64,000 nt of DNA, taken from NCBI GenBank assembly GCA_043821445.1, contig JBDRCT010000040.1:26745-90744 (forward strand). Direction: 5' to 3'. The DNA comes from Candidatus Omnitrophota bacterium (lineage in GTDB: Bacteria > Omnitrophota > Omnitrophia > Omnitrophales > Aquincolibacteriaceae). The position numbers and the translations under genes are program-made. Each line of letters begins with the position of its first letter. The first letter of the stretch is position 1. This document shows, one piece after another, positions 3,257 through 59,211 of the stretch. The notes beneath the pieces are model-generated. The model made no database searches and had not been told where the DNA came from. It worked only from the letters and a program-made list of their open reading frames with translations.

Positions 3257-4587
3257 GTTCGGCTAAAAAGTTAAAGACGGTGGCACTACGCAGGAAGATC
3301 TTCGGGCTCGTTGAGGAATTCGCAGAAGTTGCACATGTCCCGCAATCCTTCAAACCGGGCATCACTCACGTGCCGGTGGCCGGCCGTGTTTATGGCGCCC
3401 GCGAGTTGCAGCTTTTAACCGAAGCCGGGCTTGATTTTTGGCTGACGACAGGCCGATTTAACGAGCAGTTCGAAAAGCGGCTCGCGTCATTTCTTAAGAT
3501 CCGTTATGTTTCCACGACAAATTCCGGCTCCTCCGCCAATCTTCTCGCCGTAGCCGCTTTAACCTCTCCCAAATTAGGGGATCGCGCGCTCAAACCGGAC
3601 GATGAAGTGATCACGGCTGCAGCCTGTTTTCCAACAACCGTGAATCCATTACTCCTCTACGGCCTAAGGCCCGTCTTTGTGGACGTTGCCATCCCGACCT
3701 ACAATCCAACTGCTAAGCTGGTCGCGGCGGCCATTACGAAAAAGACCCGTGCGATCATTTTAGCGCATATGCTCGGAAATCCTTTTGAGGCGGAGGCTAT
3801 TGCCGATCTTGCAAAAAAGCATGATCTTTGGCTCGTTGAGGATTGCTGTGACGCGTTGGGCAGCACTTATAACGGTAAGCGTGTCGGCACGTTGGGTCAT
3901 ATCGGAACGGCGAGCTTTTATCCCGCCCACCATATTACAATGGGAGAGGGTGGCGCCCTTTTCACCCAAGATGCATCTTTAAAGCGACTGATCGAGTCTT
4001 TTCGCGACTGGGGGCGTGATTGCTATTGCGATCCCGGAAGAGACAACACCTGCGGCAAGCGATTCACGCAACAATACGGAGATCTGCCGAAAGGTTACGA
4101 TCATAAATATGTTTACTCCCATGCGGGTTACAACCTGAAGATCACTGATATGCAGGCGGCCGTCGGACTGGCTCAAATGGACCGTCTCGAACAATTCATT
4201 AGCATCCGTAAGCGCAACTTCGCGTTCCTAAAAAAGAAGTTTGCGGGGCTTGAAGAGTTTTTTATCTTGCCGGAAGCAACTCCCGGCAGTGATCCGGCCT
4301 GGTTCGGTTTTCCGCTGACCCTACGCTCGAAGGCGCCATTTACTCGCGAAGAACTGCTTCTTCATCTGGATCAAAAACGGATCGGTACAAGGCTGTTGTT
4401 TGCGGGGAATATCACCCAACAGCCGTACTTCAAAGGCCGGAAATACCGGATCAGCGGCGATCTGAAAAATTCTGACACCATCATGAGAAATACCTTCTGG
4501 CTAGGCGTTTACCCGGGACTTACGAAAGCCATGCTGGATTATGCCGGGGATGCGGTCGGAAATTTTGTGCGGAGAAGCCGTGGTTAG
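3244..4587 (+). CDS. rfbH: CDP-4-keto-6-deoxy-D-glucose-3-dehydrase (E1), PLP/PMP-dependent DegT family with [2Fe-2S] motif
   Basis: Colinear over its whole length with RfbH/DdhC as recalled from enterobacterial O-antigen clusters ([43 protein letters not shown]). Cysteine cluster [20 protein letters not shown]. Confidence 0.9.
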
Positions 4588-51279: not shown

Positions 51280-53097
51280 TTGAACATTCTCGGGATCTCG
51301 GCTTTTTATCATGATAGCGCGGCGTGTCTCATCCGGGACGGAGAGATCGTGGCCGCGGCACAGGAAGAGCGTTTTACGCGCAAAAAGCATGATTTCTCGT
51401 TCCCGAAGCATGCCATCGACTGTTGCCTTAAAAAAGGCGGTATCGAAGCCTCCGGCCTCGATTGTGTCGCATTTTATGATAAGCCCTTCATCAAATTCGA
51501 GCGCATCCTCGAGACCTATCTCGCTTACGCCCCGCATGGCATCGCGTCCTTTCTTATGGCCATGCCTCTTTGGATCAAACAGAAGCTCTGGATGAAGGAT
51601 TACATCCAGACCGAGCTTGGTTTCGAAGGGAAGATCATTTTTCCGGAACACCGTGAGTCGCATGCCGCCTCGGCGTTCTTTCCGTCGCCTTTTGAGGAAG
51701 CCGCGTTCCTTACCATGGACGGCGTGGGGGAATGGGCGACCACCAGTTACGGCGTGGGGAAAGGCAATAAGATCGAGATCCTCGCAGAGATCAAATTCCC
51801 GCATTCGCTCGGCCTCCTTTACTCCGCTTTCACTTATTATACGGGCTTTAAGGTCAATTCCGGGGAATACAAGGTCATGGGCCTCGCCCCCTACGGCAAG
51901 CCGGTGTACAAAGACCTGATCCTGAAAGAATTGATCGATCTGAAAGAGGACGGTTCGTTCAAGCTCAACATGAAATATTTCGATTATTGCGCCGGACTCC
52001 GCATGACGAACAGCCGCTTTCATAAGCTCTTTGGCGCGCCTCCGCGAAAGCCCGAATCCCGCGTCGCACAGCGCGAAATGGACCTCGCGCGTTCCATCCA
52101 GGAAGTGACTGAGGAAGTCATGCTCCGGATCACGCGCCAGGTCCACAAAGTGACGGGGCAGAAGAACCTTTGTCTTGCCGGAGGCGTGGCCCTGAACTGC
52201 GTCGGGAACGGCCGCATTCTTCGCGAAGGCCCGTTCGAGCATATCTGGATCCAGCCGGCTTCAGGTGACGCCGGCGGAGCCGTGGGGGCGGCTTATTTCG
52301 GCTGGTATCAGTATCTTGGAAAAACGAGGGCCGCGAACGGGAAAACGGACAGCATGCAAGGTTCTTATTTGGGGCCGGAGTTCTCAGACACCGAGATCGT
52401 GGAATTCTTGTCGAGGCACGGGATCCCGTTCACCCGTCTCCCGGATAAAGAACTCCCGGAGAAGATCGCGGACCTGGTCGCGCAGGAGAAAGTGATCGGA
52501 TGGTTCGAGGGCGCGATGGAGTTCGGACCCCGGGCACTCGGCGGCCGCTCCATTCTCGGGGACCCGCGTTCGCCCAAGATGCAGGAACAAATGAATCTCA
52601 AGATCAAATTCCGCGAAAGTTTCCGCCCGTTCGCCCCTTCGATCACGGCCGAGAAGGTCTCGGACTATTTCGAAATGAAATCGGAGAGTCCTTATATGCT
52701 CCTGGTCGCGCCGGTCCAAAAAAAATGGCGCCGGGAGATGACAGAAGATGAGAAAAAACTTGAAGGGATCGAACTCCTGAACGTGAAGCGGTCTACGATC
52801 CCGGCCGTCACGCATGTCGACTATTCTGCGCGCGTTCAAACGATCACCGAGACGCAGCACCCAAGGTTCTACCAGCTTCTTAAGAAATTCGACGAAAGGC
52901 ACGGCTGCCCGGTCCTGATCAACACTTCGTTCAATGTGCGGGGAGAACCGATCGTCTGCACGCCCGAAGACGCCTTCCGGTGTTTCATGCGCACGCACAT
53001 GGATTATTTGATCCTTGGGAACTATCTGCTCGACAAGAAAGAGCAGAAGCCTCTTGAAAAGGACAGTGCCTGGATGAAGGAGTTTGAACTGGACTAA
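51280..53097 (+). CDS. carbamoyltransferase, NodU/CmcH family
   Basis: TTG start. NILGISAFYHDSAACLIRDGEIVAAAQEERFTRKKHD is the canonical NodU N-terminus. 605 aa. Confidence 0.88.
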   Translation: MNILGISAFYHDSAACLIRDGEIVAAAQEERFTRKKHDFSFPKHAIDCCLKKGGIEASGLDCVAFYDKPFIKFERILETYLAYAPHGIASFLMAMPLWIKQKLWMKDYIQTELGFEGKIIFPEHRESHAASAFFPSPFEEAAFLTMDGVGEWATTSYGVGKGNKIEILAEIKFPHSLGLLYSAFTYYTGFKVNSGEYKVMGLAPYGKPVYKDLILKELIDLKEDGSFKLNMKYFDYCAGLRMTNSRFHKLFGAPPRKPESRVAQREMDLARSIQEVTEEVMLRITRQVHKVTGQKNLCLAGGVALNCVGNGRILREGPFEHIWIQPASGDAGGAVGAAYFGWYQYLGKTRAANGKTDSMQGSYLGPEFSDTEIVEFLSRHGIPFTRLPDKELPEKIADLVAQEKVIGWFEGAMEFGPRALGGRSILGDPRSPKMQEQMNLKIKFRESFRPFAPSITAEKVSDYFEMKSESPYMLLVAPVQKKWRREMTEDEKKLEGIELLNVKRSTIPAVTHVDYSARVQTITETQHPRFYQLLKKFDERHGCPVLINTSFNVRGEPIVCTPEDAFRCFMRTHMDYLILGNYLLDKKEQKPLEKDSAWMKEFELD

Positions 53098-53101
53098 CCG
53101 A

Positions 53102-53183
53102 GTGTCAGCGTATCAAAGTATCAATGTGTCAAAGATCCAAATCTGAAATCCTGACACTCTGACACCTTGACACTATGACACTT
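53102..53183. repeat. dyad-symmetric pair of tandem 8-mer arrays: (GTRTCANN)x4, an 18-nt spacer, then (TGACACNN)x4
   Basis: gtgtcagc gtatcaaa gtatcaat gtgtcaaa | gatccaaatctgaaatcc | tgacactc tgacacct tgacacta tgacactt. Confidence 0.85.
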
Positions 53184-53198
53184 TCAATAAGGATTTAA

Positions 53199-53618
53199 AT
53201 GAGTATCGTTAAAGAAATAAAAAAGATTGAGTCGAGCAGGAAAAAGCTCCGCGAATTCGGTTTCGTGGTCGGGGGAGTCCTGTGCGTGCTGGGGATCCTT
53301 TTTTACTGGCGGGGGCGGGGGAGTTTCCCGTATTTTCTTGTGCCCGGGATCTTCCTTGTTATTGCGGGAGCCATCATCCCTTCGATCCTGAAGCCTGTCC
53401 AAAAGGCATGGATGACGCTCGCGGTCCTGATGGGTTGGGTCATGACGCGCGTGTTACTTTCCCTCCTTTTCTATCTCGCGATCACACCGATCGGGCTCAT
53501 CTTGCGCCTTATGGGAAAAGACCTCCTGGACGAGAGGCTTGATCCCAAAAAGCAAAGTCACTGGAAGATCCGGCCGCAAGACACGCGCGTTCCGAGCGAC
53601 TACGAAAAGCAGTTTTGA
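53199..53618 (+). CDS. SxtJ-like small membrane protein
   Basis: 139 aa with 3 TM helices. Position immediately after the carbamoyltransferase matches the conserved NodU-SxtJ-DUF5989 neighbourhood. Confidence 0.55.
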   Translation: MSIVKEIKKIESSRKKLREFGFVVGGVLCVLGILFYWRGRGSFPYFLVPGIFLVIAGAIIPSILKPVQKAWMTLAVLMGWVMTRVLLSLLFYLAITPIGLILRLMGKDLLDERLDPKKQSHWKIRPQDTRVPSDYEKQF

Positions 53619-53726
53619 GTTTTTCATTCCAGCCTCAGGCGGCATCTGCTAGTATATCCGCCAATTGCGGTGTCTTTAATAACGGAAGCGCGTCAGAGAG
53701 CGCCTTCTATCACTCACGGGGGAACT

Positions 53727-53885
53727 ATGGGCAAATTAGGGATTTTGAAGGAGTTCTTGGATTTTCTGAAAGTTCGCAAAAAATGGTGGCTCACCCCGAT
53801 CGTCGTGGTCATGGTCCTTTTGGGTGCCTTGATCGTGTTTTCACAAGGGTCCACAGTGGCGCCTTTCATCTACACCCTTTTTTAA
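53727..53885 (+). CDS. DUF5989-family small membrane protein (SxtK-like)
   Basis: MGKLGILKEFLDFLKVRKKWWLTPIVVVMVLLGALIVFSQGSTVAPFIYTLF. Internal ATG 53727 with a GGGGGAA SD. The track start at 53670 is probably too far upstream. Confidence 0.6.
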   Translation: MGKLGILKEFLDFLKVRKKWWLTPIVVVMVLLGALIVFSQGSTVAPFIYTLF

Positions 53886-53891
53886 CAGCGC

Positions 53892-55055
53892 ATGCCGTTC
53901 TATCCTTTCAAAAGCCGGTGGAAACGGATAGCGGCCGGATGTTTCGACGCGGTCGGCCGGATCTGTTTCATCCCTTGGAAGTCGCTCCGGAAGCCCTTGG
54001 ACCTTGCGGCGGTGCGGCGCATCCTTGTGGTCCGCCTGGACCATATCGGCGATGTCGTCATGTCCCGGCCGATGATCCGGGCCCTGCATAAGAAATTCCC
54101 GCACGCGGAGATCGATCTTCTTGTGACCGAAGATATCGCGCCGCTTTTCGCATTTTCCAAAGAGATCCGGACCGTGATCACGGCCCAACACGGATGGTTC
54201 ATGCGCAGGGCTTCTTTTCTCCTAAAGTGGTCCGAGTTCTGGCGTCTTGTCAGGATCTTAAAAACTACGCCGTATGACATGGGGTTCGATCCGCGCGGGG
54301 ATCTCCGGAATATCCTTTTAATGTTTTTGGCCGGTGTCCGGTACACGGTCGGTTATGGGATCACAAGCGGCGGATTTTTGCTGAACGAAGAGATCCCGCA
54401 TGACGCCTCCCGGCATCAGGTGGAGCTCAACATGTGCCTTTTAAATTCATTCCACATCGCACAGGATAACAAGCTTCTGCCATTCGAATATTCCTCCGAG
54501 AGGGCGCGTGAATTCTGGAAGAAAACCGGAGTGCTGCCGCTCACGACCCTCTTGCCGCGCGTCGCGATCCATATGGGGTCCGGATATCCGTCCAAACGCT
54601 GGCCGCCCGAGAACTTCAAGGCGCTTATCCAGCAGATCGACAAGGAAGCGCTCGCCCAGATCGTGCTGGTCGGGACGAAGGCCGAGAAGGACGCGGCCCC
54701 GGACCTCAAACTGAACTCGGAGCGTCTTATCGATCTGCGGGGCAAAACGGCCCTGCAGGATCTTCCGGTCCTCATGGATGTGTGCGATGTTTTTATCGGG
54801 AACGATTCAGGGCCGGCGCATATCGCCGCAGCCCAGGGACTGGAGATCATTTTGCTGGTAAGCGGCACGAACGACATCCATCTCTGGCATCCTTGGACCG
54901 AACGGTTGTGCTTTCTCCAACACGAAGTTCCGTGTTCACCGTGCGGATTTGAGAACTGTCCGGTCGAAGGCCATCCCTGCGTGGATGAGATCACGGTCGA
55001 TCAAGCTTTTGACGCGTTCCTTTCGGTCCTCGGCCGCCTTCAGAAGCGATCTTAG
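53892..55055 (+). CDS. GT9 glycosyltransferase (ADP-heptose:LPS heptosyltransferase family)
   Basis: ILVVRLDHIGDVVMSRP is the GT9 N-terminal motif. GNDSGPAHIAAA C-terminal motif. Confidence 0.8.
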   Translation: MPFYPFKSRWKRIAAGCFDAVGRICFIPWKSLRKPLDLAAVRRILVVRLDHIGDVVMSRPMIRALHKKFPHAEIDLLVTEDIAPLFAFSKEIRTVITAQHGWFMRRASFLLKWSEFWRLVRILKTTPYDMGFDPRGDLRNILLMFLAGVRYTVGYGITSGGFLLNEEIPHDASRHQVELNMCLLNSFHIAQDNKLLPFEYSSERAREFWKKTGVLPLTTLLPRVAIHMGSGYPSKRWPPENFKALIQQIDKEALAQIVLVGTKAEKDAAPDLKLNSERLIDLRGKTALQDLPVLMDVCDVFIGNDSGPAHIAAAQGLEIILLVSGTNDIHLWHPWTERLCFLQHEVPCSPCGFENCPVEGHPCVDEITVDQAFDAFLSVLGRLQKRS

Positions 55056-55058
55056 GCC

Positions 55059-56159
55059 ATGGTCCTCCATCGTGTCGGGCTCGATATCAGGATGCTCCAG
55101 AACTCGGGAATCGGGACTTATCTGCGCGGGCTTCTCTCGGGATTGAGGGCGCTCGGCTTGGACAGGGATCTGGCGCTTTTTGGCCTCGGGCCGACAGAGA
55201 CTCGACGGGATCGCGTTTTTTCAGCGCCGATCTATTCCATTCGTGAGCAACTCCAGTATCCGGATCTTTTAAGGCAGTGCCGCCTCTGGCACGCGCCGCA
55301 TTACAATGTCCCGCTCCTGAAGGGGAAGACAAAACTCGTGGTCACGATCCACGACATCATTCACTGGATCTTCCGCAAACAATTTTTATCGCCCCTCCAG
55401 GCCGCTTATGCCGGTTTCATGCTGGGAAAAGCGGTCATGTCCGCCGATCAGATCATCGCGGTGTCGCATCACACCCAAAAGGACCTCATCGATCATTTTC
55501 GCGCGCCGGAGAAAAAGATCACCGTCATCCATCAAGGGGTCGATGAGACCTGCCGAGAGCTTCCGCCCGAGGAACTTGTGCCGGCTTTCGAAAAGATCCG
55601 CTGGAAGTACAAGGTCCCTCAGGATTTTTTTCTCTACGTCGGGCTCATCAAACCGCACAAGAACGTGCTTATGCTCTTGCATCTTTTCCGCAGGCTCAAG
55701 GAAGAGGGGAAGGTCCGGGCATCGCTTGTCCTGATCGGTCGTAAGGACAAGTCCTATCCGCCCGGGTATGAGGCATTGGCCTCTCTGAGTTCGACGAAGG
55801 ACATCTTCTACTTGCCGGCGATCGAGCCCCAGGAGCTCAAGGTCTTTTATAATCAAGCGCTCGCCCTGGTCCATCCTTCGCTCTACGAGGGGTTCGGGCT
55901 GACGCTTCTGGAAGCGATGGGTTCCGGAACGCCGGTGCTGACCACGAACTCCTCCTCGATCCCCGAAGTGGTCGGGGATGCGGCCCTGCGGGTCAACGCC
56001 ATGGATGAGATTGCGATGGGGAATGCCCTCATCCGTTTGGATCAAGACGTGCCCCTCCGGGGATCGTTACGCCTCAAAGGCCTGGAACGGGTCAAGCTTT
56101 TCAACTGGAAGGAGACCGCCCGCAGAACGGCCGAGGTGTATGAAAAGGCGCTCCGATAG
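55059..56159 (+). CDS. GT4 (group-1) glycosyltransferase
   Basis: EGFGLTLLEAMGSGTPVL E-x7-E motif. Confidence 0.8.
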   Translation: MVLHRVGLDIRMLQNSGIGTYLRGLLSGLRALGLDRDLALFGLGPTETRRDRVFSAPIYSIREQLQYPDLLRQCRLWHAPHYNVPLLKGKTKLVVTIHDIIHWIFRKQFLSPLQAAYAGFMLGKAVMSADQIIAVSHHTQKDLIDHFRAPEKKITVIHQGVDETCRELPPEELVPAFEKIRWKYKVPQDFFLYVGLIKPHKNVLMLLHLFRRLKEEGKVRASLVLIGRKDKSYPPGYEALASLSSTKDIFYLPAIEPQELKVFYNQALALVHPSLYEGFGLTLLEAMGSGTPVLTTNSSSIPEVVGDAALRVNAMDEIAMGNALIRLDQDVPLRGSLRLKGLERVKLFNWKETARRTAEVYEKALR

Positions 56160-56167
56160 CCCAAAGG

Positions 56168-56204
56168 TGTTACAAGAGGTTTCTAGAGGTTACAGAATGT
56201 TACA
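56168..56204. repeat. three GTTACA motifs (with GAGGTT repeats) upstream of the four-helix-bundle gene
   Basis: ggtGTTACAagaggtttctagagGTTACAgaatGTTACAcgaggtt. Confidence 0.8.
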
Positions 56205-56237
56205 CGAGGTTGCTTGATATTCGAAAGGGTGTGTTAT

Positions 56238-56651
56238 ATGTCGGCGGCATATGAAAAATTGAAATTTTATCAGGATATTTGCGACATCAGACGACTTGTA
56301 CAAAAAATCACTGCCAGATTTCCCGCCTCCCAGTTTCGTCTCACGAGCCAAATACGGGATGCGGCACGATCCGCAAAACAGAACATTCGGGAGGGATATA
56401 AAAAGGGCACCGCGAATGAATTCATGAGAAGTATCATGATCTCGCGCGGATCGTTGGAAGAACTTGGCGGGGATATCGAGGATTGTTGGGAAGATGGCTT
56501 GATCACTGAAGATGAATGCGAGCACCTGAAGCGGCTGATCCGCAGTGTGGATTTTCTTTCAGTGCGATATTTGCGGGCTTTGACCGTTATGAAGAAGGCC
56601 GGAACATGGAAGGCCCCGAGTTTTTATCGCGGAGGGGAGAAAACCCTTTGA
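56238..56651 (+). CDS. four-helix-bundle protein (23S rRNA intervening-sequence protein family, PF05635-like)
   Basis: YEKLKFYQDICDIRRLVQKITARFPASQFRLTSQIRDAARSAKQNIREGY matches the family pattern. Flanked by GTTACA/GTAAC repeat arrays. Confidence 0.7.
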   Translation: MSAAYEKLKFYQDICDIRRLVQKITARFPASQFRLTSQIRDAARSAKQNIREGYKKGTANEFMRSIMISRGSLEELGGDIEDCWEDGLITEDECEHLKRLIRSVDFLSVRYLRALTVMKKAGTWKAPSFYRGGEKTL

Positions 56652-56663
56652 AGGTGTCATTTC

Positions 56664-56726
56664 GTAACATCCTGCAACTTTTTTGCGTAACTTTTCTTTG
56701 TGTAACCTATGGTAACCTTCTGTAAC
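56664..56726. promoter_or_regulatory. five GTAAC motifs (reverse complement of GTTAC), the last three at an exact 10-bp period, ending 2 nt before the ATG of the GT4 gene
   Basis: cGTAACatcctgcaacttttttgcGTAACttttctttgtGTAACctatgGTAACcttctGTAACtcATG. Confidence 0.6.
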
Positions 56727-56728
56727 TC

Positions 56729-57823
56729 ATGCTAAAGATCGCTCTGGTCCATGATTGGCTCATTCATATGCGCGGCGGCGAGAAGGTCCTGGACGCCTTG
56801 GCCGAACTTTATCCGGAGGCCACACTTTACACGCTGTTCATTGACCGGAAAAAGATAAGCCCGAACCTTTCACGGCTCAGGACCAAGGCCTCGTTCCTGC
56901 AATATTTTCCGGGCATCAAGTTCTACTACCGGTGGCTTCTCCCGATCCTGCCCTGGGCGATCCGTTCCCTGAAAATCGAGGAGGCGGACCTGGTGATCTC
57001 AAGCTCCCACTGCGTCGCGAAAGGCATCCGTGTCCCCGCAAACGCTTTCCATGTCTGCTACTGCCATACGCCGATGCGCTATCTTTGGGGGTTCCAGGAC
57101 GCCTATTTCAAGCGCTATCTGTCACCGGTCCGGCTGCTCATCAATGGCGTATTCCATTTCCTCAAAAAATGGGACCTGGGGACCAACGAGCGGGTGGACC
57201 TTTTCGTCGCGAATTCCGAATATATCAGAAAGCGCATCAAAACGGTCTACGGGTGCGACGCCGTGGTCGTCCATCCGCCGCTTGAGACGGACTTCTTCAA
57301 GCCCGTGGGCACTCCGGAGAATTTTTTTCTTGCAGTTTCACACTTTGTTCCGTATAAAAGACTTGACCTGGTGATCGAGGCTTTTAACGGCCTGGAACGG
57401 CGGCTGGTCGTGATCGGGTCCGGTCCTCTGGCGTCCCAATATCAAAAACTCCGGAAAAGCGACCGGATATCCTTCTGGGGCGGCGTGAGCGATGACGAGC
57501 TTCGCAAGGCCTACTCGGAAGCGAAGGCGCTTGTCTTTCCGACGGAGGAAGATTTCGGGATCGTGCCGCTGGAGGCCCAGGCCTGCGGCACGCCGGTGAT
57601 CGCGTTCCGGAGAGGCGGGGCACTGGAAACAGTGAAAAGCGGTGTTTTTTTTGATGAACAGACCCCGGAAGCCGTTCGCGAGGCCGTGCTGCGGTTCGAG
57701 GGACAGAGCTTCGACCGCGGAGAGGTTTCCGGAAAAGTGCAGGGGTTCGGACGAAAGCATTTCCTAGAAAATATGAAAAAAACCATCGACGAACATTACG
57801 CGAAGAAGGTTGTGCCGTCATGA
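56729..57823 (+). CDS. GT4 (group-1) glycosyltransferase
   Basis: EDFGIVPLEAQACGTPVI E-x7-E motif. 364 aa. Confidence 0.8.
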   Translation: MLKIALVHDWLIHMRGGEKVLDALAELYPEATLYTLFIDRKKISPNLSRLRTKASFLQYFPGIKFYYRWLLPILPWAIRSLKIEEADLVISSSHCVAKGIRVPANAFHVCYCHTPMRYLWGFQDAYFKRYLSPVRLLINGVFHFLKKWDLGTNERVDLFVANSEYIRKRIKTVYGCDAVVVHPPLETDFFKPVGTPENFFLAVSHFVPYKRLDLVIEAFNGLERRLVVIGSGPLASQYQKLRKSDRISFWGGVSDDELRKAYSEAKALVFPTEEDFGIVPLEAQACGTPVIAFRRGGALETVKSGVFFDEQTPEAVREAVLRFEGQSFDRGEVSGKVQGFGRKHFLENMKKTIDEHYAKKVVPS

Positions 57824-59211
57824 GGTCCGGTCACGCGCGCAGGATCACGGCGGCAACCGTCCTCGTTGATGCGGCCATGATCGTGCTCAGCTTCATTGTG
57901 GCGTATTACTTCAGGTTCCTGGGCGTGCTGCCCACGCGCGGCGTTCCGCCGCTTCTCAATTACTGTCACGCGCTCCTCGGGATCATCCCGATCTATCTTT
58001 GGCTTTTCCGTGAGGCCGGGCTTTATCAGACTTCGCGTCATATACGGCGGATTGAAGAGATCTTTCTCGTGGTCAAGGTGGTGACCTACGCGGTGATCCT
58101 CCTCATGGCCCTCACGTTCTTCTACCGCCAATTCTCTTACTCGCGCCTTTATCTGGTTTTTATGTGGCTCTTCTCCTGTGTCTTCATCAGCGTCGGCCGC
58201 TACGCGCTCATTCAGTGGGGCTATTGGCGTCGCATGCAGAAAAAGGACACGATCGAGGTCCTGATCATCGGTTTTAACGCCAACACGCATGCCCTGATTA
58301 AGTGGGCCAAGAATAATCCGCACTACGGTCAGAGACCGGTCGGGATCCTCGCCCCGGCCGTGGGGGATATCGGCAAGCTTGTGGAGGATATTCCTGTCGT
58401 GGGCCTCACGGAACACTGGGAGACCTTCATTCAAAAGCTTCAGCCGAATCAGGTCGTGCTCGTGGACGAAAGTTTTTCCAGGGAAAAGGTCACGGACCTC
58501 GTAGCGACCTGTGAGGATGCATTCATTGATTTCAAGATGGGTGCTGACATTCACGGCCTCATTACGAGTAATGTCGGCATCGAATATGTCAGCCATATTC
58601 CGCTTCTCGGGTTCCGTGCGCTCCCGCTCGACGACCCGTGGAACCGGTTCCTGAAAAGGGTCTTCGATTTTGTCGTGGCAAGCGTCATGACTCTCGTTTT
58701 TCTTCCCATCGGACTGGCCGTCGTGGTGCTGATCCTTTTGGAAGGAAAGGGCCCCGTTTTTTATTTTCAGGAACGCATGGGCCGCGACGGGCATGTCTTC
58801 CGCCTCATCAAATTCCGTACGATGAAGATCGACGCCGAGAAGGAAACGGGGCCCGTGTGGGCGTGTCCGGAAGACGACCGGAGAACGCGGACCGGGGAGT
58901 TTCTCCGCCGCTGGAATCTCGACGAGCTCCCGCAGCTTTTGAACGTGCTTTCCGGAAAAATGAGTCTTGTGGGCCCTCGGCCGGAGCGTCCCCACTTCGT
59001 GGATAAATTCCGGGAAAGCGTGCCGCGTTACATGGCGCGTCACAAAGTGAAGTCCGGCCTCACCGGGTGGGCCCAGGTCCACGGTCTGCGGGGTGACACG
59101 TCGATCGAAGAGCGCATTAAATACGATCTTTATTACATGGAGAACTGGTCGCTTCTCCTGGATGTTGAGATCCTGGTGATGACGCTCTTTGCGTTCAAGA
59201 ATGCGTATTGA
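57820..59211 (+). CDS. undecaprenyl-phosphate sugar phosphotransferase (WbaP/WcaJ-like initiating enzyme)
   Basis: N-terminal TM helices. C-terminal bacterial sugar-transferase domain RPGLTGWAQV. Confidence 0.85.
   Translation: MRSGHARRITAATVLVDAAMIVLSFIVAYYFRFLGVLPTRGVPPLLNYCHALLGIIPIYLWLFREAGLYQTSRHIRRIEEIFLVVKVVTYAVILLMALTFFYRQFSYSRLYLVFMWLFSCVFISVGRYALIQWGYWRRMQKKDTIEVLIIGFNANTHALIKWAKNNPHYGQRPVGILAPAVGDIGKLVEDIPVVGLTEHWETFIQKLQPNQVVLVDESFSREKVTDLVATCEDAFIDFKMGADIHGLITSNVGIEYVSHIPLLGFRALPLDDPWNRFLKRVFDFVVASVMTLVFLPIGLAVVVLILLEGKGPVFYFQERMGRDGHVFRLIKFRTMKIDAEKETGPVWACPEDDRRTRTGEFLRRWNLDELPQLLNVLSGKMSLVGPRPERPHFVDKFRESVPRYMARHKVKSGLTGWAQVHGLRGDTSIEERIKYDLYYMENWSLLLDVEILVMTLFAFKNAY

Follow-up and report, generated by a model that had tools for sequence, protein, structure and literature searches.

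A four-helix-bundle gene between inverted repeat arrays as a probable selfish cassette at a gene junction of an Omnitrophota polysaccharide operon

We analysed a 64,000-nt stretch of DNA from a Candidatus Omnitrophota bacterium (contig JBDRCT010000040.1 of assembly GCA_043821445.1, positions 26,745 to 90,744; hereafter the window), in which a gene for a small four-helix-bundle protein of the 23S ribosomal RNA (rRNA) intervening sequence (IVS) family lies between two family 4 glycosyltransferase (GT4) genes of a polysaccharide operon and is bracketed by inverted arrays of short repeats. On the evidence of alignment with orthologous operons, the segment 56152–56734 is an insertion absent from them, and we consider it probable that it is a compact selfish cassette that belongs with the 23S rRNA IVSs that carry an open reading frame (ORF). 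Recurrence of the array–gene–array layout across phyla suggests a widespread type of mobile element, related to the rRNA IVSs and apparently not described before. The original prediction had left the choice between a selfish element with its own terminal repeats and a regulator of the downstream operon containing a WbaP-like gene; the former is now strongly supported by six loci with an empty site, by arrays that reach to ~10 nt from the breakpoints, by recurrence across phyla and by gene-less multicopy derivatives.

Results

The segment is missing from orthologous operons

Orthologues of the downstream GT4 gene (GT4b; the upstream gene is GT4a) were found at 85–90% identity, and six loci carrying three of these orthologues (L073–L078) are collinear with the operon of the window, the common order being carbamoyltransferase, SxtJ, DUF5989, family 9 glycosyltransferase, GT4a, GT4b, WbaP-like, family 2 glycosyltransferase, DegT and HAD. 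The end of GT4a overlaps the start of GT4b by 4 bp (ATGA) in all six loci, and no four-helix-bundle gene lies between them. Nucleotide alignment of the window with these loci lost homology at ~56151–56156 and regained it at ~56732–56735; the extra ~580 bp consist exactly of an upstream (F) array, the ORF and a downstream (R) array. The change is visible in both neighbouring proteins: GT4a ends in ALR in the window versus AEK in the relatives, where its TGA stop is inside the ATGA overlap, and GT4b begins with MLKIAL in the window versus MKIAL or MKTAL. The GT4a stop, together with the ATG and one added codon of GT4b, sits in non-homologous DNA, and since the sequence around that stop is not common to the relatives, the stop was either supplied by the insert or remodelled after insertion.

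In a further relative (L079), a 75-aa ORF and a PIN_3 toxin gene lie upstream of GT4b at 3307–3929, and the genes further upstream differ (Wzy_C); other GT4b orthologues (L205–L208) have a Wzy gene upstream. Orthologues of GT4b with N-terminal extensions (P0145, P0166 and P0172) were considered as carriers of a cassette at the same site and rejected, a Wzy gene lying upstream instead. With a PIN-domain toxin–antitoxin pair or a Wzy gene in this position in other relatives, the junction is generally variable, a hot spot for changes of gene content.

Two inverted arrays enclose a single ORF

From the TAG stop of GT4a to the ATG of GT4b, the layout is five 10-nt units, 24 nt, the ORF, 12 nt, six reverse-complement units and 2 nt (Table 1). 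The cores of the F array are GTTAC (56169), GTTTC (56179), GTTAC (56189 and 56199) and GTTGC (56209), at a period of exactly 10 nt, and the units of the R array are GTAAC (56664), GCAAC (56674) and again GTAAC (56687, 56702, 56712 and 56722), spaced by 10, 13, 15, 10 and 10 nt. Every motif position in the original prediction proved correct (GTTACA at 56169, 56189 and 56199; GAGGTT at 56176, 56186 and 56206; and the five GTAAC), and two of its groupings were revised: the upstream motifs that it had taken as GTTACA interleaved with GAGGTT are really one five-unit array, GAGGTT being the 5' part of units 2, 3 and 5, and downstream the GCAAC unit is to be added to the five GTAAC. The two arrays form an imperfect inverted repeat (56169–56197 with 56698–56726; 29 nt, 79% complementary).

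The F and R sites are the two densest clusters of GTTAC/GTAAC in the window, and 5 of its 13 GTAAC fall within the 63 nt of the R array. A generalised unit pattern likewise yielded, in all 64 kb, a single forward array of 5 units and a single reverse array of 6, which is well beyond chance, as first-order Markov simulations predict 0.01 arrays of at least five units per window. Across the whole window GTTAC outnumbers GTAAC threefold (40 versus 13), probably as a result of coding-strand bias, most genes being on the + strand.

No sigma-70-like promoter was predicted in 55900–56900, and no relevant + strand terminator was found in the gap between the GT4 genes. An Rfam search of 52500–57500 gave no rRNA match, and the cassette sits between the two GT4 genes, not in an rRNA helix. 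The cassette contains no transposase or recombinase of a known class, its only ORF being that of the four-helix bundle with PF05635 as the sole Pfam match. The core of integron attC sites is GTTRRRY; an attC site was considered here and rejected, since the unit is GTTAC(T/A) and is repeated as arrays on both flanks.

Table 1. Coordinates of the cassette, its neighbours and gene-less hairpins (window positions unless a locus is named)
Feature	Position	Strand	Remark
Whole cassette (F array, ORF and R array)	56152..56734 (~580 bp)	+	Bounds ±6 nt, from junction alignment with L073–L078
Upstream GT4 gene (GT4a)	55059-56159	+	
TAG stop of upstream GT4	56157..56159	+	Outside the sequence common to relatives
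F (upstream) array, five 10-nt units	56166..56213	+	Sense strand purine-rich
AAAGGG, likely Shine-Dalgarno sequence of the four-helix-bundle ORF	56224..56229	+	8 nt 5' of the ATG; putative
Four-helix-bundle gene (PF05635/TIGR02436, S23p/Avd-like)	56238..56651	+	Intact, 137 aa
R (downstream) array, six reverse-complement units	56664..56726	+	Stops 2 nt short of the next ATG
ATG of downstream GT4 (GT4b, 56729-57823)	56729..56731	+	ATG and next codon, CTA, missing from relatives
Downstream WbaP-like Bac_transf gene	57820-59211	+	
Predicted long-range RNA stem, 51 bp	56147..56743	+	5' flank 56147-56213 with 3' flank 56674-56743; prediction
Second hairpin in the same operon	53098-53198		Gene-less; four GTRTCA (period 8), 17-nt loop, four TGACAC
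Gene-less hairpins in L004	355-500, 2771-2925		
Gene-less hairpins in L032	2702-2801, 4682-4811		
Gene-less hairpin in L036	1632-1817		

The ORF encodes a conserved protein with pentameric relatives

The protein is 137 aa long from the ATG at 56238 (145 aa if an upstream TTG is used) and not 138 aa as first given; its assignment to the 23S IVS-protein family was borne out by scores of 66.9 bits against PF05635 over residues 6–104 (cut-off 33.8) and 57.6 bits against TIGR02436 (cut-off 24). It is 100% identical to a National Center for Biotechnology Information (NCBI) protein of a Candidatus Omnitrophota metagenome-assembled genome (MAG). The AlphaFold2 model of the monomer (pLDDT 93.3) has helices at residues 9–25, 30–56, 59–85 and 91–121, and a Foldseek search with this model returned Xcc0516 (Protein Data Bank (PDB) entry 2GSC; TM 0.91, rmsd 1.2–1.6 Å) and, with probability 1.00, BT_0352 (2RLD) and Avd (4DWL and 8UB7); a profile of the subfamily also matched Xcc0516 (E=6 × 10−10), and Avd shares just 9–10% sequence identity with the window protein. 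For each of these three solved relatives the PDB entry comprises five chains. Xcc0516 is a homopentamer (PMC4990558), and Avd forms a pentameric barrel that binds RNA stem-loops in the ribonucleoprotein of diversity-generating retroelements (DGRs; bioRxiv 10.1101/2023.10.23.563531).

With a pI of 9.3 the window protein is basic, its third helix being acidic, and it has the helix-2 motif R...S-x3-N-x2-E-G: R40, S45, N49, E52 and G53 match Xcc0516 in the alignment of the two proteins, and a 30-sequence alignment of the subfamily shows them conserved to at least 90%, the second Arg of the Xcc0516 motif being Asp41 here. The subfamily spans Omnitrophota, Planctomycetota/Brocadiia, WOR-1, Saganbacteria and others at ~60–70% identity, which, with 34 invariant columns in the same alignment, indicates purifying selection on the protein. 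Viral contigs gave no relative of the subfamily and thus no sign of carriage by phages. PF05635/TIGR02436 proteins number in the thousands across bacteria and, to our knowledge, apart from Avd none of them has been given a function since the 23S IVSs were described around 1990.

Array, gene and array recur as a module

A genome scan identified 72 loci that encode relatives of the protein, and 55 of them had enough flanking sequence for arrays to be looked for, as the original prediction had proposed. At least one array was present at all 55 loci, which represent several phyla (both flanks, 43; F only, 6; R only, 6; neither, 0), at a background frequency of ~0.06–0.07 arrays per kb. The typical layout is a GGTTAC-like array upstream and a GTAACC array downstream, with a 10-nt unit of consensus GGTTAC-t-A-A-A and a C-poor spacer, identical for the upstream and the reverse-complemented downstream arrays; the modal upstream array has 5 units (19/58). 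Units are spaced by 10 nt in 63–67% of cases and by 9 nt in ~15–18%, and spacings of 9 to 14 nt occur in the subfamily. The 10-bp period pointed out originally is therefore real and modal; its reading as helical phasing of B-form DNA does not simply follow, given these other periods and the 7 nt of the cyanobacterial arrays described below and of Coxiella (PMC4990558).

The core of the unit varies between loci (GTTAC, GTTAA, GTTCC/GTTTC, GTTGC, GTTAT and GTTAG), and the dominant variant was the same on both flanks in 31 of 40 loci, compared with an expectation of 16 and a maximum of 25 in 10^4 permutations. The variants cluster on the protein tree, and in L010 an irregular series of spacings (10, 13, 10, 10) is mirrored on both flanks. 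The neighbouring genes are mostly co-directional with the cassette gene (upstream, 50/53 loci; downstream, 48/54), at gaps of ~15–130 nt that leave just enough room for the arrays. They belong to unrelated operons, apparent arginine-biosynthesis and epimerase genes having been recognised by eye; homologous cassettes elsewhere adjoin ribonucleotide reductase (RNR) and cas genes. The innermost upstream unit, often GGTTGC, directly precedes the ATG in many loci (for example, L003, L006, L007, L009 and L020) and would thus contain the ribosome-binding purines, and the TAA stop often forms the first bases of a TAACC unit, so that the hairpin of the arrays has a loop filled exactly by the ORF.

Decayed and gene-less copies accompany full cassettes

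Five pseudogenes retain their arrays (L017, L022, L044, L047 and L050), and in two internally deleted copies (L066 and L071) only the first 20–50 codons are left between them. Several cassettes can occur in one MAG (L017/L049, L042/L066 and L064/L070/L071, all in genomes related to, and distinct from, that of the window). Gene-less pairs of an F array followed by an R array were found near full elements, 11 in seven loci and one more in L059, and carry the unit variants of the neighbouring full cassettes. Near-identical gene-less pairs stand at different sites (two in L004 at ~90% and two in L032 at ~97% identity, estimated by eye), and the L032 type recurs in another MAG (L036), both being from Planctomycetota/Brocadiaceae; the hairpins of L004, L032 and L036 have GGTTGC and GTAACC as innermost units around a short loop. 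On this sequence evidence they behave like a family of miniature inverted-repeat transposable elements (MITEs).

The operon of the window contains a second hairpin, without a gene, that fills the gap between the stop of the carbamoyltransferase gene (53097) and the start of the SxtJ-like gene (53199) and folds at −26.9 kcal/mol. As L076–L078 have just 3–7 nt at this site, it too is an insertion. A metagenome scan with TGACACNN x3 matched at least 120 loci; among the matches listed, hidden Markov model searches found no four-helix-bundle-like ORF, and a few gene-less F-to-R pairs were present. A cognate four-helix-bundle clade predicted for this GTGTCA hairpin is not supported by these listed matches. 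A match to Rfam MIR5274, a plant microRNA precursor, at 53101–53181 on the − strand (26 bits versus a gathering threshold of 100, E=0.034) was rejected as spurious, being caused by the hairpin.

Predicted pairing of the arrays is polarised towards the sense strand

Predicted duplexes between the two flanks have a mean of −41.9 kcal/mol across loci, compared with −26.2 kcal/mol for shuffled sequences, and z-scores reach −12. In the window, the flanks alone give −48.9 kcal/mol, and 90-nt flanks give −51.5 versus −33.6±4.9 kcal/mol for shuffles; in the minimum-free-energy fold and in the centroid fold alike, 51 long-range pairs enclose the cassette, with the ORF looped out. The + strand duplex is the more stable one in 37 loci versus 18 for the − strand (P=0.0035), and transition mismatches that are wobble-compatible, leaving G–U on the sense strand, favour the + strand by 65 to 42. 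Furthermore, the purine fraction of the upstream flank is 0.60 versus 0.49 (P=9 × 10−7), a polarity that is common to clades with unrelated units.

A conserved repeated unit is the signature of a protein site, and the presumed pentamer is the only candidate reader borne by the element. We therefore favour a combined model: F and R probably base-pair within the transcript of the operon and probably also serve as recognition sites of the pentamer that the cassette would encode. The modal number of five units would fit a pentamer, a match that for now is numerology.

Distant family members carry arrays of other units

tblastn searches against plasmids gave distant family members at 30–42% identity, and inverted heptamer arrays flank seven of the seven cyanobacterial plasmid PF05635 genes examined, whose products are 30–40% identical, with unit sequences that differ between loci. 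These are, upstream and downstream, GTAGGGA x8 and TCCCTAC x5 in Nostoc edaphicum, where the gene lies between nrdB and nrdA; GGGAACA x4 and TGTTCCC x7 in Nostoc sp. C052; GGGTGTR and YACACCC in N. punctiforme and Calothrix; GGTGACA and TGTCACC in Anabaena sp. 90, between cas6 and cas4; and GGCAGRA in Stanieria and GGGAARA in Geminocystis, each with its complement downstream. In each of these cases, the sense strand is the G-rich one on the upstream side of the ORF. On plasmid pANA02 of Anabaena sp. 90 (L209, ~1640–1670), the TGTCACC array falls within the 5' end of cas4 as annotated, the start of that gene being placed 45 nt downstream of the four-helix-bundle stop; the start of cas4 may be mis-annotated, or the array may be partly coding.

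These flanking arrays look like members of the class of short tandemly repeated repetitive (STRR) sequences, which Mazel et al. are said to have described in 1990 as dispersed tandem heptamers of unknown function in the intergenic DNA of Nostoc, Anabaena and Calothrix. No link between STRRs and PF05635 genes turned up in the searchable literature, and full-text searches of papers readable without subscription gave no description of arrays around free-standing PF05635 genes. PF05635 ORFs have been reported at rRNA insertion sites in bacteria of the candidate phyla radiation (CPR; bioRxiv 10.1101/2024.02.27.582315) and between cas genes (PMC3936711). Some branches of the family may depart from this layout: in Prevotella nigrescens (L080, 1447–2136), a protein of 230 aa with a 'four helix bundle suffix domain' has no clear flanking tandem arrays, and only downstream of it is there a palindromic, tagggWWcctag-like stretch.

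Discussion

Proposed model and its weak points

We infer the following course of events. The cassette would have no promoter of its own and would be transcribed by read-through, whereupon the purine-rich F array would pair with the pyrimidine-rich R array to form a long periodic stem with the ORF looped out. Such a stem would bring the stop codon of the upstream gene close to the start codon of the downstream one and hide the ribosome-binding region of the ORF, and it would be a likely substrate of RNase III, by analogy with the rRNA IVSs, where this was shown experimentally. The basic, presumably pentameric protein would recognise the repeated units, about five of them, and this recognition would allow self-regulation and probably have a role in the maintenance or spread of full-length and gene-less copies.

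Several observations weigh against this account. No direct repeat that could be a target-site duplication was seen at the breakpoints, where the boundaries are blurred by relatives that are just 85–90% identical (protein), and ~11 nt of the ancestral GT4a/GT4b junction appear to have been replaced. The whole-region fold of the window does not exceed shuffled sequences in stability (z=−0.46), transversions account for most of the mismatches between the two arms (146/253), and the similarity of mirrored spacers is not significantly above that of non-mirrored ones (0.63 versus 0.60). This last result places the selection on the repeated unit and not on a position-specific helix, which suits protein sites at least equally, and we accordingly claim no covariation support for a helix of fixed register. 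Bent double-stranded DNA would be equally compatible with A-rich spacers at a period of 10 nt, and the correlation of unit variant with protein clade could be mere co-inheritance. In addition, a four-helix bundle has no known catalytic activity able to move DNA, and binding, processing and mobility of the cassette are read from its anatomy.

Alternative explanations

A purely DNA-level model is a serious rival, one that we rate as possible although unlikely. It takes the arrays as subterminal double-stranded sites, like those at the ends of Tn7, Mu and Ac/Ds, which are synapsed by the four-helix-bundle pentamer or by an unlinked transposase, RNA pairing being incidental. Terminal arrays at a site that is empty in relatives, the conserved unit with its uncompensated spacers, the modal 10-bp period with A-rich, C-poor spacers that could bend DNA, the unit variants that follow the protein clade and the gene-less copies, which resemble MITEs mobilised in trans, are all in keeping with it. 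However, the periods of 7, 8, 9 and 12–14 nt in relatives would put the sites on different helical faces, and the co-orientation with host operons and the purine polarity of the sense strand across clades are unexpected for a function in double-stranded DNA only. Furthermore, there is neither a transposase-like gene nor a visible target-site duplication, and the only characterised homologue, Avd, binds RNA.

A second alternative is a non-autonomous retro-element in which the array duplex joins the RNA ends, an Avd-like pentamer binds, a reverse transcriptase (RT) acting in trans, for example that of a DGR, makes a copy and the copy is re-inserted. Reverse transcriptases of DGRs are common in Omnitrophota and CPR-type lineages. 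The fold of the window protein matches Avd, and the sense-strand polarity and the co-orientation with transcription would also be accommodated. Avd is an obligatory RT cofactor, and the DGR RNA needs a long-range duplex around the template as well as an Avd-binding stem-loop (bioRxiv 10.1101/2023.10.23.563531). Nevertheless, none of the cassettes examined adjoins an RT; poly-A, a priming motif and adenine-specific variation are missing; and no integration mechanism is evident. We rate this explanation as improbable.

The proposal of a resident transcription factor that acts through iterated operators on the downstream GT4/WbaP operon fared worse and is very improbable. It drew on an R array that adjoins the ATG of the next gene, on iterated motifs of the sort typical of cooperative binding and on the basic character of the protein. 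Yet the orthologous operons lack both gene and arrays and have translationally coupled GT4 genes instead, homologous cassettes stand in unrelated operons, no promoter was predicted in the gap, and the inverted arrays flank the four-helix-bundle gene on both sides, whatever its neighbours are, and not a promoter. Judged by these comparisons of operons, the WbaP operon does not have its dedicated regulator in the cassette. Chance or local replication slippage beside an ordinary gene can be dismissed as next to impossible: short tandem units can arise by slippage and array copy number varies between loci, but two arrays, inverted and bracketing one gene, far exceed the simulated expectation, and the arrangement is repeated at 43/55 homologous loci and in 7/7 distant relatives.

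Relation to known systems

The selfish cassette that we favour most resembles the 23S rRNA IVSs of Leptospira, Coxiella burnetii and others. These also have an S23p/PF05635 protein in the loop of a compact element (~430–760 nt) with terminal inverted repeats that pair in the transcript, tandem short repeats just 5' of the ORF, a sporadic distribution and ORF-less versions, and they have long been suspected to be mobile (PMC4990558). In the IVS of Coxiella, the heptamer GACAGAT is repeated three times in tandem ahead of the S23p ORF, and a terminal stem of 28 bp is cleaved by RNase III in vitro; the idea of the IVS ORF as a mobility factor goes back to Ralph and McClelland (1993; cited in PMC4990558). 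The window cassette differs in that it lies between protein-coding genes and not in an rRNA helix, has arrays of five to six 10-nt units at its ends instead of a plain 28-bp stem, and gives its neighbours a stop and a start codon; moreover, RNase III cleavage is known for IVSs, whereas the cassette is known here from sequence alone.

Avd has the same family and fold, a basic pentameric barrel that binds structured RNA, and the DGR RNA likewise uses a long-range duplex flanking a functional segment. However, no reverse transcriptase, template repeat or variable repeat lies near the window gene, whose neighbours are glycosyltransferase genes, the homologous loci likewise having ordinary operon genes beside them, and Avd genes are not known with bracketing inverted repeat arrays. 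A protein gene flanked by inverted copies of a short repeat of its genome, with many gene-less hairpin doublets at gene junctions and presence/absence polymorphism, also recalls repetitive extragenic palindromes (REP/REPIN) with their REP-associated tyrosine transposases (RAYT) and transposon/MITE pairs. In contrast to these, the cassette protein is a four-helix bundle with no HUH, DDE or serine- or tyrosine-recombinase signature, the ends are arrays of tandem 7–10-nt units and not a single palindrome, and no target duplication was seen.

In Geobacter metallireducens, 24, 21 and 8 inverted pairs of tandem octa- or heptanucleotide arrays at gene junctions (classes 1–3) were read as IHF/HU sites, 'putative global regulator binding sites', and were tied to no gene (PMC2700814). 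They resemble the arrays described here as multicopy inverted pairs of 3–5 tandem 7–9-nt units (GTTGCTYN, TCTCCGTS and MTYCTGA) at junctions such as nifD/nifK, proB/proA and moaA/mosC, and the class 1 unit (GTTGCTYN x4) is similar to the GGTTGC unit of the cassettes; unlike the cassettes, they are described as gene-less, and no link to four-helix-bundle genes is drawn (PMC2700814). Class 1 pairs are also frequent neighbours or targets of ISGme8, an IS110-family element (PMC2700814, supplementary table S4), which suggests that array hairpins are landing sites for other mobile elements.

Implications

Going further, a large class of mobile hairpin-array elements could have gone unrecognised, with PF05635 pentamers as the factor that these elements encode. 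Each clade of the protein would read its own 7–10-nt unit, with about five units per pentamer, and would drive or be required for the spread of full cassettes and gene-less hairpins into operon junctions and rRNA helices, by a chemistry unlike that of known transposases and possibly mediated by RNA. This extension is speculative and, taken as a whole, rather doubtful; if true, it would unify the 23S IVSs, free-standing 'S23p' genes, STRR-like heptamer arrays, the 'global regulator sites' of Geobacter and the origin of the Avd protein of DGRs.

For the annotation of genomes, cassettes of this kind, which come between translationally coupled genes and provide them with stop and start codons, may be mistaken for regulators or for parts of a pathway, as in polysaccharide, CRISPR-Cas and RNR loci. 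For the family itself, a gene that travels as a unit with clade-specific inverted arrays and inserts at operon junctions, and whose gene-less copies multiply, would turn a domain of unknown function into a testable system, in which candidate binding sites are defined, an RNA structure is predicted and alleles with and without the cassette occur naturally.

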